From: a virus
Strand: one strand, 5' to 3'
Length of the DNA stretch: 26,540 nt
IMG/VR virus record: IMGVR_UViG_3300025584_000018
The notes beneath the pieces were generated by a model. That model had not been told where the DNA came from. It worked only from the letters and a program-made list of their open reading frames with translations, and did no database searches. Shown one piece after another: positions 6,341 to 10,923 of the stretch; position 1 is the stretch's first letter; each line of letters begins with the position of its first letter. A program made the position numbers and the translations under genes.

Positions 6341-6598
6341 TTATTGATGCCATTGAACTGTAGCTTGGTTTAAATGTTTGCGCATTTGTTCTTCTACGAT
6401 ATCCCAATCAAAACTACGTCTCCATTTAGAAATATTAGTATGTTCGATATAATCTTTGATAACATCTCCCAATTTTGCACTATGTAATTTTAATTTCATT
6501 GTGCTCATTTTTGATTTTTCATACTGACTATACATTTCTACTGGGACATCGTCTATTTTGTCTGTGCCGTACTTTTCGGTTAATTGTTCGTATTTCAT
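6341..6598 (-). CDS. Hypothetical protein (85 aa)
   Basis: AAGGAGAAATAAA-ATG RBS. Confidence 0.8.
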   Translation of the reverse strand: MKYEQLTEKYGTDKIDDVPVEMYSQYEKSKMSTMKLKLHSAKLGDVIKDYIEHTNISKWRRSFDWDIVEEQMRKHLNQATVQWHQ

Positions 6599-6623
6599 TT
6601 TATTTCTCCTTAAAATAATCTTT
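6596..6623 (-). repeat. 28-bp gene-junction module AAAGATTATTTTAAGGAGAAATAAAATG, copy A
   Basis: Other copies at 7288-7315 (ATG>ACG), 8064-8091 (identical), 9140-9167 (1 mismatch); encodes RLF-stop fused to RBS and start codon. Confidence 0.95.
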
Positions 6624-7290
6624 CTTGTGTAGTATGTTTTTCGATTCTTTCTTCTGCAATGTTGAAATATGTTTCATCAATCTCAATACCTATAAAATCT
6701 CTATTAGTTTGTTTACAAGCAACTCCTGTTGAACCTGAACCCATAAAAGGGTCTAAAATAATTTGTGTTTCATCTGTATTATTTTTTACAAATATTTCAA
6801 GCATATCCACATTTTTTTCAGTAGGGTGTAATAATTTACTACTTGAAATTTTAGGAAATTCCATAACATCGGACAATCTTTTTTCTCTAAACAAACTTCT
6901 TCCTTTATGTGCATAAATTATAAATTCGTGTTTCGGTGCGTATGATGCCTTTAAATCTCCAGAGCCATGATTATTTTTAACCCAGACAATAATATTTTTT
7001 ATTTTGAAATATTTTTCAATAGATTGTTTAAATTTATCAACATTATGCCAACTACAAAAAATATATAAAGATGAATTATTATTAAGAATTTTATCTGATT
7101 TTATTAAAAAATCTTCAAGCCAAATTAAATTTGAATCATTTTTTATTTTATCAAATTTTTCTTTCACAACTCTTCTATTACTTTGAAAAGACATTCCATA
7201 AGGTGGGTCTGTAATTATAGCATCGACCTTAATCCCATCTTCAATCATTCTATCCATTGCTATTAAGCAATCTTCATTATAGAGTTTCGT
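6610..7290 (-). CDS. Orphan DNA methyltransferase 1, beta class, DPPY (probably m6A); apparent ACG start, 226 aa
   Basis: DPPY precedes DPFMGSGSTG; RBS then ACG-AAA-CTC-TAT-AAT-GAA-GAT-TGC (xKLYNEDC) in frame 11 codons above the track start, matching MTase 2 MKLYNEDC. Confidence 0.9.
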   Translation of the reverse strand, partial: TKLYNEDCLIAMDRMIEDGIKVDAIITDPPYGMSFQSNRRVVKEKFDKIKNDSNLIWLEDFLIKSDKILNNNSSLYIFCSWHNVDKFKQSIEKYFKIKNIIVWVKNNHGSGDLKASYAPKHEFIIYAHKGRSLFREKRLSDVMEFPKISSSKLLHPTEKNVDMLEIFVKNNTDETQIILDPFMGSGSTGVACKQTNRDFIGIEIDETYFNIAEERIEKHTTQERLF

Positions 7291-7315
7291 TTTATTTCTC
7301 CTTAAAATAATCTTT
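7288..7315 (-). repeat. 28-bp junction module, copy B (ATG replaced by ACG)
   Basis: Direct comparison with copies A and C. Confidence 0.95.
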
Positions 7316-8066
7316 GTTGTGTTTCTTTTATTCTTTTCTCTGCTATATCACAATACTCACTACTCATCTCACTACCTATCCAATTTCTATTATTTAAAAT
7401 AGCCATCTTTGCTGTTGTTCCACTTCCCATAAAAGGGTCGTAAACAATATCATTTTCATTACTCCAACTTATTATGTGGTCATTCGCTAATTGTTCTGGG
7501 AATTGAGCAACGTGATTAGCTGTATTATAACCGCCAGTGTTATACTTCCAAACATTACCTTTCTGTTTTTTATCTTTGGTTTTTAAAGATGTTTGTGTTT
7601 CTCTTAATCCTATACCAATTTCATTAGTTTTCCTGCTTCTTTTTATTGTTTTGCCAGCGTGAATACAATCAATCATTAAAGGATTAAAAGACTTTGGTTT
7701 TTCTTTACTGAAAACGAACATATATTCAAACTCTTGCTCATATCTTTTATGTGTTAGTGGTATAAAATTTGCTTTTTGGTAAATCATAGTGTCATTCAGC
7801 CTAAATCCACATTCTTTTAAAAATAATGCTTGTTTAAAAGATGTTCCTGTCTCACTTCCTTTTATTGTTGCATCTCCAACAATCCAAACTACTACACCGC
7901 CTTCTTTAGTTACTCTATACAATTCTTTAGCTATGCTTTCAAAATCAAAACTATAACCATTGTACGTCCTTAAATTGTCATAAGGTGGAGATGTTACTGT
8001 TAAGTCAATAAAGTTATCTTCCATTCTTGCCATTGTATCAAGGCAGTCTTCATTATAGAGTTTCAT
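7302..8066 (-). CDS. Orphan DNA methyltransferase 2, beta class, SPPY (probably m4C), 254 aa
   Basis: TSPPY catalytic motif; H..QFPE; DPFMGSGTTA SAM motif. Confidence 0.92.
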   Translation of the reverse strand: MKLYNEDCLDTMARMEDNFIDLTVTSPPYDNLRTYNGYSFDFESIAKELYRVTKEGGVVVWIVGDATIKGSETGTSFKQALFLKECGFRLNDTMIYQKANFIPLTHKRYEQEFEYMFVFSKEKPKSFNPLMIDCIHAGKTIKRSRKTNEIGIGLRETQTSLKTKDKKQKGNVWKYNTGGYNTANHVAQFPEQLANDHIISWSNENDIVYDPFMGSGTTAKMAILNNRNWIGSEMSSEYCDIAEKRIKETQQRLF

Positions 8067-8091
8067 TTTATTTCTCCTTAAAATAATCTTT
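8064..8091 (-). repeat. 28-bp junction module, copy C
   Basis: Identical to copy A. Confidence 0.95.
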
Positions 8092-9031
8092 GTTGTGTAG
8101 TATGTTTTTCAATTCGCTTTTTAGCTATCTCAAAATAATCTTTGTCTATTTCAATCCCTATAAAGTCTCTATTCAAGTTTTTACAAGCTACTCCTGTTGT
8201 TCCACTTCCCATTGTTAAATCAACTACTGAATCATTTTCATTGCTAAAAGTCTTCATCAAATCTTCAAGCAACAATACAGGCTTTTGCGTTGGATGGTAA
8301 CCGTCATAATCCTTTTTGTATTTTAAAATATTTGATTTGTATTTTTTACCTTCCCATAGGTTAAAGGTGCTTGCGAACCTTTTAAAACAATTAAAATGTA
8401 TTTCCTTTAACTCTTGGTATTCCCTATTAAAAAAACCAGTTACTTCTCTTAATTTTAAATAATGTTTTTCAGGTATCATTGATGGTTGCAATGAACTACA
8501 CCAATGGTAAGCGGCTCCACCGTGTCCTTTTGTATTTAATCCACAAACACCACACATTTCATCAAGTGTTAGTTTTGCTTTTTTACGTTCTATATTTAAG
8601 TATTCTCTATAACTATCATCTTCACCATAAGTTCCGTGAGAGCCTTTGCTAAAAACTAAAACATCTTCATAATAATTTAAAGGTGCTTTTTTAGCTGTTA
8701 AAGCATTTGCAAAATGGTCTTTCTCCCATATCATACTATAATTAAATGGTAAGTTTGGCAGTGCTTTATTTATTAATTCATTTGTAAATGGTTGCTGTGC
8801 TGTTAATATCATTTTGCCGTTTTTTCTTAAAATACGATTTGCGATTTCCATTATTTTATTAATATCAATAACACTATCCCATTCAGTTTTCCCTTTCATT
8901 CCATGATTTATGCTTTCACTATTTCCTAACCCTTTAACAGTTCCATAAGGTAAATCAGTCAATATTAAATCAACACTTCCATCTTTTATATGCTTGTGTT
9001 GTTCTAAACAGTCACCTTTATAGAGTTTCAT
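8078..9031 (-). CDS. Orphan DNA methyltransferase 3, beta class, DLPY, 317 aa
   Basis: TDLPY, HPTQKP, DLTMGSGTTG, FIGIE; central insert of about 90 aa. Confidence 0.92.
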   Translation of the reverse strand: MKLYKGDCLEQHKHIKDGSVDLILTDLPYGTVKGLGNSESINHGMKGKTEWDSVIDINKIMEIANRILRKNGKMILTAQQPFTNELINKALPNLPFNYSMIWEKDHFANALTAKKAPLNYYEDVLVFSKGSHGTYGEDDSYREYLNIERKKAKLTLDEMCGVCGLNTKGHGGAAYHWCSSLQPSMIPEKHYLKLREVTGFFNREYQELKEIHFNCFKRFASTFNLWEGKKYKSNILKYKKDYDGYHPTQKPVLLLEDLMKTFSNENDSVVDLTMGSGTTGVACKNLNRDFIGIEIDKDYFEIAKKRIEKHTTQQRLF

Positions 9032-9046
9032 TTTATTTCTCCTTTG

Positions 9047-9142
9047 TTAAATTGTTCCGTAAACAATACTAACAACAATTATTACCGTGATTGCTATTAA
9101 TCCAAAAACAAATACTATATTATCATCAAGTTCAATCTTCAT
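9047..9142 (-). CDS. 31-aa single-TM peptide inside the MTase array (not in ORF track)
   Basis: Junction copy D supplies RBS and ATG; MKIELDDNIVFVFGLIAITVIIVVSIVYGTI. Confidence 0.7.
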   Translation of the reverse strand: MKIELDDNIVFVFGLIAITVIIVVSIVYGTI

Positions 9143-9167
9143 TTTATTTTTCCTTAAAATAATCTTT
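9140..9167 (-). repeat. 28-bp junction module, copy D
   Basis: One mismatch (AAGGAA versus AAGGAG). Confidence 0.93.
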
Positions 9168-10086
9168 CTTGTTTAGTATGTTTTTCAATTCTTTCTTCTG
9201 CAATTTTAAAATAGTTTTCATCTAATTCAATACCTATAAAATCACGATTTGTATTCATACAAGCAACTCCTGTACTTCCACTACCCATTGTTAAATCAAC
9301 TACTAAATCGTTTTCATTACTAAATGTCTTAATCAAATCTTCAAGCAACAATACAGGCTTTTGCGTTGGATGGTAACCGTCATAATCCTTTTTGTATTTT
9401 AGTATATTGCTTTTGTATTTGTTGCCTTCCCATAAGTTAAATGTACTTGTATGTCTTTCATTTATCTTTTCAAGCTCACTGTAATTTAAAAATCCATCCA
9501 TATTATTAATTCGGTATTCTGTAATTAAAGCTAAGTATGTTTCTTTTTTGCAAAGTTCAAATTGTGAGCTTTTTATTCTAAAAACGTGGTCAGCTCTTTG
9601 TCCTATTGCCTCAATTACATTTTTCTTTTTAAGTCCAATAAAAGAAAGCACGTTACCAAAATACGTTCTAAGTGGGTGCAAGTTTTCAACATCATACTTT
9701 TTGCTAAAAACTAAAACATCTTCAATATAACTTACAGGTGCTTTATTTGACACTAAACAATTTGCAAAGTGCATTTTATCCCAGTACATATTATAGCTAT
9801 GAGGTAAGTTAGGAATAGCTTTTGATATTAATTCAGTTGTAAAAGGTTGGTTAGCTGTTAAAATCATCTTGCCATTTTTTCTTAATATCCTATTGGCTAT
9901 CTGCATGACTTGATCGGTATCAATAGTAATATCCCACTCAGAAACATTATATTTTTTTTCTTTTGCTACCCTGCTATTACCCAACCCTTTAACCGTTCCA
10001 TAAGGCAAGTCCGTAAGCACCAAATCTACACTTCCATCTTTTATATGCTTGTGTTGTTCTAAACAGTCACCTTTATAGAGTTTCAT
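9154..10086 (-). CDS. Orphan DNA methyltransferase 4, beta class, DLPY, 310 aa; paralog of MTase 3
   Basis: Start corrected to MKLYKGDC (AAGGA RBS); near-identical N- and C-terminal blocks to MTase 3 with an unrelated central insert. Confidence 0.92.
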   Translation of the reverse strand: MKLYKGDCLEQHKHIKDGSVDLVLTDLPYGTVKGLGNSRVAKEKKYNVSEWDITIDTDQVMQIANRILRKNGKMILTANQPFTTELISKAIPNLPHSYNMYWDKMHFANCLVSNKAPVSYIEDVLVFSKKYDVENLHPLRTYFGNVLSFIGLKKKNVIEAIGQRADHVFRIKSSQFELCKKETYLALITEYRINNMDGFLNYSELEKINERHTSTFNLWEGNKYKSNILKYKKDYDGYHPTQKPVLLLEDLIKTFSNENDLVVDLTMGSGSTGVACMNTNRDFIGIELDENYFKIAEERIEKHTKQERLF

Positions 10087-10087
10087 T

Positions 10088-10273
10088 TTATTTTTCCTTA
10101 AATGTTTTAAGTTTTCCATTTTGAGCTGAATACCATTTGTTCATATACCTAAATTCAAATCCTTTATCTCTCATACAAATAGCAATTTCTTCACCATGTT
10201 TAGTTTTTAAAACAACTCCGTTATAAATCTCTTGCAGGATTATTGTGCCTTTTTTGTCTGTTGTTACTTTCAT
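10088..10273 (-). CDS. Hypothetical protein (61 aa; start MKVTTDKK)
   Basis: GGAGAAATAAA-ATG at 10273. Confidence 0.75.
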   Translation of the reverse strand: MKVTTDKKGTIILQEIYNGVVLKTKHGEEIAICMRDKGFEFRYMNKWYSAQNGKLKTFKEK

Positions 10274-10398
10274 TTTATTTCTCCAAACTTTTCTTCTAAC
10301 CACATTGTACATTCTGGACAGTAGTATGAATCGTGTTTTTCATTATACCACGACACTTTGTGCTCTTTACATAAATTTATATTGTGTTTATGTTTCAT
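10270..10398 (-). CDS. Small Cys/His protein (42 aa, not in ORF track)
   Basis: MKHKHNINLCKEHKVSWYNEKHDSYYCPECTMWLEEKFGEIK; CxxH...CxxC; coupled at both ends. Confidence 0.65.
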   Translation of the reverse strand: MKHKHNINLCKEHKVSWYNEKHDSYYCPECTMWLEEKFGEIK

Positions 10399-10923
10399 TT
10401 ACATAAACCTCTGCTGTGTTTCTCTTTTTCTATTATACTCTTTATACATTCCATTACAATCTTCTAAGTTGTTTTTTGTTGGTGGACAATTACGAATTGA
10501 ATCAGTATATTCTTGAGTTGTGTATTTTCTCGGGTATAATTGATGACGGATATGATGCCTCATATTATCCACGAACTCTTTTTGCCTATTCTTTCTCTCG
10601 GAATCTGTAACTGATGTTTCTTTGATTAGTTTCCATAACTTATTTAATTTTCTTCCTATTGGATGCCTCTCTAAATCTGGCATATCACCGTCCATTAGAT
10701 AAATCAATTCATTCTTTACATCAAGCTTAGTTTCAAGACTTTCTAATTTACTTAGTTCTATTAAACCAGATCGTGTACGTCTATCGTTAGTTTTCTGTCG
10801 CGTCAGGCGAACCATATTTGTATCATCAATATTAGTGTAGTGAGCATAGTTATCAAAAAAATTACTCTTTTCTAATTCTTCTAACGCGTCGTGGACAAAT
10901 GGTTGCATATAAACATCACTCAT
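10399..10923 (-). CDS. Hypothetical protein (174 aa) ending TQQRFM
   Basis: ORF track. Confidence 0.8.
   Translation of the reverse strand: MSDVYMQPFVHDALEELEKSNFFDNYAHYTNIDDTNMVRLTRQKTNDRRTRSGLIELSKLESLETKLDVKNELIYLMDGDMPDLERHPIGRKLNKLWKLIKETSVTDSERKNRQKEFVDNMRHHIRHQLYPRKYTTQEYTDSIRNCPPTKNNLEDCNGMYKEYNRKRETQQRFM

Follow-up and report, generated by a model that had tools for sequence, protein, structure and literature searches.

Candidate sliding-clamp tethers at the C-termini of DNA methyltransferases encoded in a marine phage array and by related enzymes

The methyltransferase array

A window of 26,540 nt from a marine phage (the whole stretch of DNA that was analysed; IMG/VR record IMGVR_UViG_3300025584_000018) carries four consecutive minus-strand genes for DNA methyltransferases (MTases), all of which end, at the extreme C-terminus, in the peptide Q-x-R-L-F. 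The consensus for binding to the bacterial beta sliding clamp is QL[S/D]LF or QxxLF, with positions 1, 4 and 5 critical (PMC12309361). All four tails fit the QxxLF pentapeptide at these three positions and lie off the L-[S/D] optimum at positions 2 and 3. Among the homologues the tail motif was found to be conserved beyond what shared DNA explains, and a function as beta-type clamp tether is considered here to be its probable role.

All four products were matched by Pfam PF01555 (N6_N4 MTases) over profile positions 1-221 of 221, above the 26.7-bit cut-off and with E values of 1.4e-30 to 6.3e-46. The motif order is permuted in each, with DPPY, SPPY or DLPY near residues 17-30 and (F/T)MGSG(S/T)T about 45 residues before the C-terminus. 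MTase 1 (beta-class DPPY; 6610..7257, minus strand; 215 residues as called; E 1.6e-36) ends in TQERLF, with QERLF as candidate clamp-binding motif (tail codons 6613..6630, minus). MTase 2 (beta-class SPPY; 7302..8066, minus; 254 residues; E 6.3e-46) ends in TQQRLF (7305..7322, minus), and its nearest solved relative is M.MboIIA (1g60). MTase 3 (beta-class DPPY-type; 8078..9031, minus; 317 residues; E 6.8e-33) likewise ends in TQQRLF (8081..8098, minus). MTase 4 (9154..10119, minus, as a 321-residue open reading frame (ORF); E 1.4e-30) ends in KQERLF (9157..9174, minus) and is paralogous to MTase 3, from which it differs in the central insert (repeats D1, D3, D5). The translations thus agree with a preliminary description of the window, in which all four enzymes had been said to end in Q-x-R-L-F. 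Only these four of the 48 minus-strand ORFs of at least 60 residues in the window have an LF end.

Two of the gene starts call for comment. The ancestral frame of MTase 1 comprises 226 residues and reaches position 7290, with 11 upstream codons in frame (xKLYNEDCLIA; ACG AAA CTC TAT...). Its ATG start is now ACG (7288-7290, minus), so that the called ORF begins at an internal Met and does not include the N-terminal strand and the GDC-type motif. In variant contigs of the same phage the codon is ATG, giving 226 residues, in L106, and ACG, as in the window, in L104. Judged by its start codon, MTase 1 of the window may be N-terminally truncated or poorly translated. The real start of MTase 4 is probably at 10086 (MKLYKGDC), which would give 310 residues (9154..10086); this 310-residue gene call is present in contig L104.

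Tails of beta-class homologues

MTase 3 relatives with a complete C-terminus (117 sequences, 60-100% identity) were compared, and tail counts were set against 1000 composition-preserving shuffles of the tails. Q..[LMI]F was found in the tail after the last domain helix in 28 of the 117, against 0.5 in the shuffles, and an exact [LMI]F end in 37, against 1.0. For the SPPY enzyme, 120 representatives of 50%-identity clusters were used, a diverse sample with G+C-rich organisms included. Eighteen of these carried Q..[LMI]F (0.5 expected, shuffle maximum 4; ca. 35-fold over chance), and 36 had [LMI]F within the last 8 residues (5.8 in the shuffles). When 39 distinct tail instances were aligned on the Phe, the commonest residues were Q (17), L (8), S (7), L (30) and F, which spells QLSLF. 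Between the end of the domain and the motif lay a linker of about 0 to 23 residues, and up to about 13 further residues, or none, may come after the motif; the tail is therefore described as a short linear motif in a flexible tail and not as an element of the fold.

A second comparison was confined to phages. ORFs of at least 150 residues were called on 80 IMG/VR contigs with MTase 3 relatives, MTases were identified by profile hidden Markov models and the set was dereplicated. [LMI]F stood within the last 10 residues of 43 of 79 MTases and of 14 of 220 other ORFs on the same strand (Fisher p = 2e-18), and exactly at the end in 34 of 79 and 5 of 220, respectively. The tails themselves vary (EYKLF, QQIRMF, QQTKLF, PQKELF, QLRMF, PPLLF, RTLFS and others), the same tail peptide is encoded by several synonymous codon sets (e.g. 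gaatataaattgttt, gaatacaaactattt and gaatataagttattc) and the DNA past the stop codon is unrelated between contigs with tailed MTases. In close variants, changes are seen at positions 2 and -1, whereas Q, L and F are retained (TTQQRLF, TTQERLF, TKQERLF). The check suggested in the preliminary description, whether homologous MTases of other phages keep QxxLF with divergent codons, thus came out in its favour: codons, variable residues and downstream DNA all differ.

Where a contig carries two or three MTases, either all have tails, of different sequence (e.g. QQIRMF and EYKLF), or none has; 12 contigs were concordant and 2 discordant, a count inflated by kinship. In one phage (L018:3361-4942) two dissimilar beta-class MTases stand side by side and both end in QTKLF; the C5 MTase (PF00145) next to this pair ends in ...IDNLIHLL and is without the motif. 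AT-rich composition as the cause of the LF ends was rejected on the tail shuffles and on the control with other ORFs of the same contigs, and is also countered by GC-rich examples such as ...HDDLPLFAG and ...RADMPLFPATA.

Tails on an unrelated class and on a chromosome

Both MTases are tailed in Cellulophaga phage phi10:1, a siphovirus in culture whose host belongs to the Flavobacteriaceae. The C-terminus of its beta-class enzyme gp028 is EDLDLFSNGKNNN (...KEDLDLFSNGKNNN). The other enzyme, gp023, is of the alpha-class Dam type (L113:9442-10203; PF02086 by annotation) and ends in ...NRQISLF. Among the IMG/VR relatives of gp023 (L114-L186), 50 of 56 distinct C-termini have [LMI]F at or near the end and 28 of 56 have Q..[LMI]F (QTSLF, QQSLF, QIKLF, QLELF, QLNLF, QKELF and others), with varying codons. 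The end ...TNY-x(2-4)-Q-x-[SKE]-L-F is almost universal in this marine phage Dam family.

A chromosomal case was found in Polaribacter sp. (OZ253439, L006:2281-3255), where a PF01555-type MTase ends in ...DKQSLLF. This enzyme has only the C-terminal S-adenosylmethionine (SAM)-binding region in common with those of the window.

Predicted docking on DnaN

In an AlphaFold 2 (AF2) model of MTase 3 (mean predicted local distance difference test score (pLDDT) 71), residues 312-317 scored below 50; the tail is therefore not confidently packed on the domain. A complex was then modelled from two copies of Polaribacter DnaN (373 residues, 25-relative alignment), taken as a stand-in from a plausible host family, and the last 30 residues of MTase 3 (62-relative alignment). 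The runs gave values of 0.62, 0.62 and 0.61 for ipSAE (interaction prediction score from aligned errors), against 0.00 for the best of three controls; in the calibration of the tool, 58 of 80 solved complexes attained the mark applied to this score, as did 2 of 110 mismatched pairs. The runs agreed in at least 92% of their contacts, and the pLDDT of the partner was at least 64. Modelling of the tails with DnaN had been proposed in the preliminary description, and the model places the MTase 3 tail in the clamp cleft: T312-F317, encoded by the tail codons at 8081..8098, are predicted to contact DnaN residues 172, 174-177, 242, 247, 321, 345, 347, 365 and 367-370. These residues we take to be those of the canonical E. 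coli cleft, by a numbering that was looked for in the literature and not found there (presumably T172, G174, H175, R176, L177, P242 and V247 for subsite 1, and N320 and M362-M364 for subsite 2).

That this host family makes use of the canonical motif is shown by MutS from the same Polaribacter genome, which has QLSFF close to its C-terminal end. For DinB, no PF00817 match was obtained in that genome, and MutS was used in its place.

The phage, its host and the available clamp

The window is phage-like, with ca. 30% G+C and all genes on the minus strand, and its genes include those for GroEL, peptide deformylase and a metallophosphoesterase. At the DNA level, the phage collection yielded relatives only among Cellulophaga and Polaribacter phages, with which short stretches of the MTase genes are 81-92% identical; a host from the Flavobacteriaceae is therefore likely, as far as such sequence kinship indicates.

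By walking 10-20 kb each way, about 66 kb around the window was reached. This region holds an ATP-dependent ligase, generic AAA+ ATPases, a SAM lyase, PhoH and baseplate genes. The lyase match (S-AdoMet_lyase, PF23780) is to a 390-residue protein (L101:8208-9380) that lies about 0.6 kb past the high-coordinate end of the window, upstream of a gene for a 1259-residue protein, and it is adjoined by an SNase-like nuclease. The presence in one phage of a SAM-degrading anti-restriction enzyme and at least four SAM-dependent MTases would call for their temporal or spatial separation. The 1259-residue protein itself was matched in the search only by an 8-kb twin and a 43% relative.

Two complete phages bear on the question of which clamp is available. 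In phi10:1 (53.7 kb) and in a 100%-complete IMG/VR relative (59 kb), both of which bear tailed MTases, neither a DnaN-type clamp nor a family A or B polymerase was found; such phages must therefore rely on the replisome of the host, whose beta clamp is then the partner at hand. That the tail docks on a phage-encoded clamp or another phage replisome hub, and not on host DnaN, is accordingly unlikely. The window phage is large and has GroEL/GroES, deformylase, ligase and several AAA+ ATPases with weak clamp-loader-like matches, and its replication module was not met within the region reached: no polymerase or clamp was recognisable in the ca. 66 kb, the genome being evidently larger. Yet these AAA+ matches are unspecific, many ATPase families being hit with E values of 1e-5 to 1e-12, the consensus of the whole family is the bacterial beta-clamp motif QLSLF, and the chromosomal MTase of Polaribacter has QSLLF. 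Together with the lack of a DnaN-type clamp, PolA and PolB in the two complete relatives, this argues against a phage-borne partner.

The repeated junction behind the window tails

The tails of the window are part of a repeated junction of about 40 nt, which consists of the tail codons, the TAA stop, AGGAGAAATAAA with the ribosome-binding site (RBS), and ATGAAA of the next gene. One copy lies at 8059..8098 (minus), assigned by repeat family D4 and by block identities, and the others lie near 6591-6630, 7283-7322 and 9135-9174. MTases 1, 3 and 4 are 79-86% identical in DNA over their last ca. 150 nt; being paralogous there, they inherited their tails together. The SPPY gene differs in this respect: in 15-nt blocks anchored on the stop codon it is 27-40% identical to the other three, or ca. 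30% overall, up to the last ca. 20 nt of the coding sequence, where identity steps to 93-100% exactly at the tail codons (the only part of this gene with DNA common to the other three) and continues at that level through stop, RBS and the next ATGAAA. The caveat in the preliminary description, that RLF lies within a duplicated junction and that its sharing could be a by-product at the DNA level, is supported by this step. Being copies of a single DNA junction, the four tails amount to no more than one observation. Codon bias is insufficient as a cause of the identical tail DNA: from codon usage alone the identical seven codons of TQQRLF* have P = 0.007, and the RBS string GGAGAAATAAAATG is rare elsewhere, preceding only 4 of 47 window genes.

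The array is a recombining, variable region. Of the variant contigs of this phage, L104 retains the array of the window, L105 is without it and in L106 the stop of the SPPY gene is lost, giving ...QQRLFTGAIK, which overlaps the next start. An exact search for the 40-nt junction in IMG/VR gave no match. Contig L105 has a carbamoyltransferase, an intein-like Hint fragment and other genes in place of the array.

Two small ORFs accompany the junction. Between MTases 4 and 3, a 31-codon ORF (9047-9142, minus) encodes the hydrophobic peptide MKIELDDNIVFVFGLIAITVIIVVSIVYGTI; the same junction and RBS stand ahead of it, and it is conserved letter for letter in L104 and L106. Upstream of MTase 4, a 74-residue ORF (10088-10312, minus) ends in the junction-like DNA ACATTTAAGGAAAAATAAAATGAAACTC, which is one T shorter, so that its TAA is read through as ...TFKEK*. 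Counting the end of this ORF, the junction sequence is present at five places in a row.

These data give some substance to the view that the shared QxRLF of the window is nothing but a by-product of a junction spread by tandem duplication and cassette recombination, the peptide being without function here. Besides the identity step, the improbable codon identity and the variability of the array, this view can draw on the L018 pair, which has a common 24-nt junction of its own (CAAACTAAACTATTTTAAAATGAA), different from that of the window. Copying, however, leaves unexplained why the copied unit begins exactly at the QxxLF peptide. Against it stand also the unrelated junctions of other phages, which encode QxxLF-type ends with varied codons and unrelated downstream DNA, the constancy of Q, L and F among close variants, and the retention of the motif inside the read-through product. 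A mere by-product is thus distinctly improbable. The two levels of explanation appear compatible, and the junction may act as a portable linker for cassette exchange.

A supposed fifth case was not sustained. The 174-residue protein encoded at 10399..10923 (minus) has no Pfam or PHROG match and, on the evidence so far, lies outside the MTase system. As had been reported, it ends in TQQRFM with codons CAG CAG AGG. The further suggestion that this ending hints at selection on the peptide failed: four homologues (61-64% identity) end in ...ET(K/M)DRING(L/F), and of TQQRFM only T169 and R172 are conserved in the family. The protein was consequently rejected as independent support. Its gene matches the 3' end of the SPPY gene by 70% over 47 nt, a weak DNA match (repeat D10).

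Proposed function of the tails

The Q-x-R-L-F tails are thus probably functional tethers to a beta-type clamp, with host DnaN as the most likely partner, and the phage DNA is probably methylated while it is being copied. The tail would present a motif of the QL[S/D]LF/QxxLF type on a short flexible end just past the last helix of the catalytic domain. Of the hydrophobic cleft lying between clamp domains II and III, subsite 1 would receive the Leu-Phe and subsite 2 the Gln of the tail; the clamp itself would most likely be the DnaN of a Flavobacteriaceae host. Tethering would concentrate the MTases on fresh phage DNA, the place at which clamps are loaded and then remain, and all four target sequences could be methylated soon after synthesis, ahead of host restriction. 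Four enzymes with one tether would compete with one another and with the clamp clients of the host. Within this phage the tail moves together with the stop codon and the next gene's RBS as a single piece of DNA; MTase cassettes that recombine at this junction would therefore inherit the tether. Binding in the cell, methylation at the fork, the use of the host rather than a phage clamp and a kinetic benefit in protection are what we infer from these data.

Of the original proposal, the reading of the QxxLF tail as a sliding-clamp tether is carried by homologues outside the array, which keep the motif, and by the docking in silico; the four tails of the window add a single observation to it, and the support from the 174-residue protein is lost.

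Several points weigh against the tether. A peptide that fits QxxLF can bind weakly, as does the motif of B. subtilis DnaE with a dissociation constant of ca. 78 µM (PMC12309361). Q-[QE]-R-L-F is off the consensus at positions 2 (L) and 3 (S/D), and its affinity may therefore be modest. Dozens of clamp-peptide complexes have already been solved, and the modelled complex belongs to a class often seen by the predictor. The successful docking therefore shows that the tail resembles a clamp-binding motif, may reflect solved complexes known to the predictor and carries no evidence of affinity. To judge from the DNA, the identity of the window tails needs no selection on the peptide, the tails being one repeated junction, and, with no polymerase or clamp recognisable in the region reached, the window phage may yet encode a clamp of its own. 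Finally, roughly half of the close homologues are without any tail, which is therefore dispensable for catalysis.

Highly improbable is a role of the terminal hydrophobic dipeptide in folding or oligomerisation of the permuted Rossmann fold, as a degradation tag or in binding another DNA-bound partner such as the single-stranded DNA-binding protein SSB: the C-terminus of a beta-class MTase does lie beside the N-terminal strand through circular permutation, and terminal hydrophobic residues do serve several other recognition systems, but the linker varies from 0 to 23 residues with up to about 13 residues past the motif, the tail is of low confidence in AF2 and missing from about half of the homologues, the same motif occurs on alpha-class enzymes, whose fold differs in its C-terminal topology, the SSB tip is acidic whereas the tail is polar or basic, and the consensus equals the clamp motif residue for residue.

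The speed of phage DNA methylation against restriction is usually credited to the amount of enzyme and its timing. If the present reading is true, a clamp tether offers a direct mechanism for methylating phage DNA fast enough to escape restriction, and DNA methyltransferases join the clamp clients that compete at the fork. The tail-plus-RBS junction would explain how MTase arrays of different specificities are assembled. For annotation, a QxxLF end on an MTase could flag replication-coupled orphan enzymes. Since both partners are available as cultures, phage phi10:1, with its two tailed MTases, and its host Cellulophaga baltica provide a ready experimental system.

Comparison with known systems

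The established clients of the beta clamp include Pol II, Pol IV, the UmuC subunit of Pol V, the alpha and delta subunits of Pol III, MutS, MutL, Hda and ligase. Like these, the MTases of the window have a pentapeptide with Q1 and L4-F5 on a flexible terminal tail of an enzyme that acts on DNA, and docking in the cleft is predicted; unlike them, the client is a DNA methyltransferase, positions 2-3 are Q/E-R and not L-S/D, and binding is so far a prediction. The clamp motif is also used by mobile elements and phages, namely by IS transposases (PMC4549789) and by MuC of phage Mu (PMC12867686). In the open full-text literature, subscription journals being outside its scope, no DNA methyltransferase of bacteria or phages was found described among the clients of the beta clamp. 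What is new here is thus a known docking motif on a class of clients for which no earlier description was found.

With the orphan phage PF01555 MTases (M.MboIIA, 1g60; M.RsrI, 1eg2; CcrM, 6pbd), the enzymes share the N-terminal motif IV (D/S)PPY and the C-terminal FxGxG. They differ from those enzymes, as described in the literature found, in the clamp-type tail, before which the Pfam model ends.

In phage T4, the clients gp43, gp33 and gp55 ride the gp45 clamp by C-terminal peptides (PMC9690074). There, as proposed here, non-polymerase proteins of a phage use a terminal peptide on a sliding clamp, by which a DNA transaction is coupled to replication. The T4 proteins bind a phage-encoded trimeric clamp, whereas no phage clamp was found here and the motif is of the bacterial beta type.

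A further functional parallel is eukaryotic. DNMT1 has a PCNA-interacting peptide (PIP) box, Qxx[LIM]xx[FY][FY], near its N-terminal region. Through such a short peptide DNMT1 is tethered to PCNA and nascent DNA is methylated (PMC9690074). A maintenance-methylation design like that of DNMT1-PCNA had been suggested for the window enzymes. The likeness holds as a functional analogy, a DNA methyltransferase being placed (here by prediction) on a sliding clamp through a short peptide, and does not extend to motif and family: the window tails contain no PIP box, since they stop at L-F with no aromatic pair after it. The clamps are a PCNA trimer and a beta dimer, the enzymes a C5 cytosine and N6/N4 amino MTases, and the purposes epigenetic inheritance and, as proposed here, evasion of restriction.

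Taken more broadly, it seems about as likely as unlikely that beta-class (PF01555) and alpha-class Dam-type (PF02086) MTases, of phages and in some cases of bacterial chromosomes, form a widespread and undescribed group of beta-clamp clients, with replication-coupled methylation convergent with DNMT1-PCNA and with the tether packaged, in this phage, with stop codon and RBS as a portable junction for the exchange of specificity cassettes. If this is true, these enzymes would be the first bacterial or phage counterpart of the DNMT1-PCNA system.

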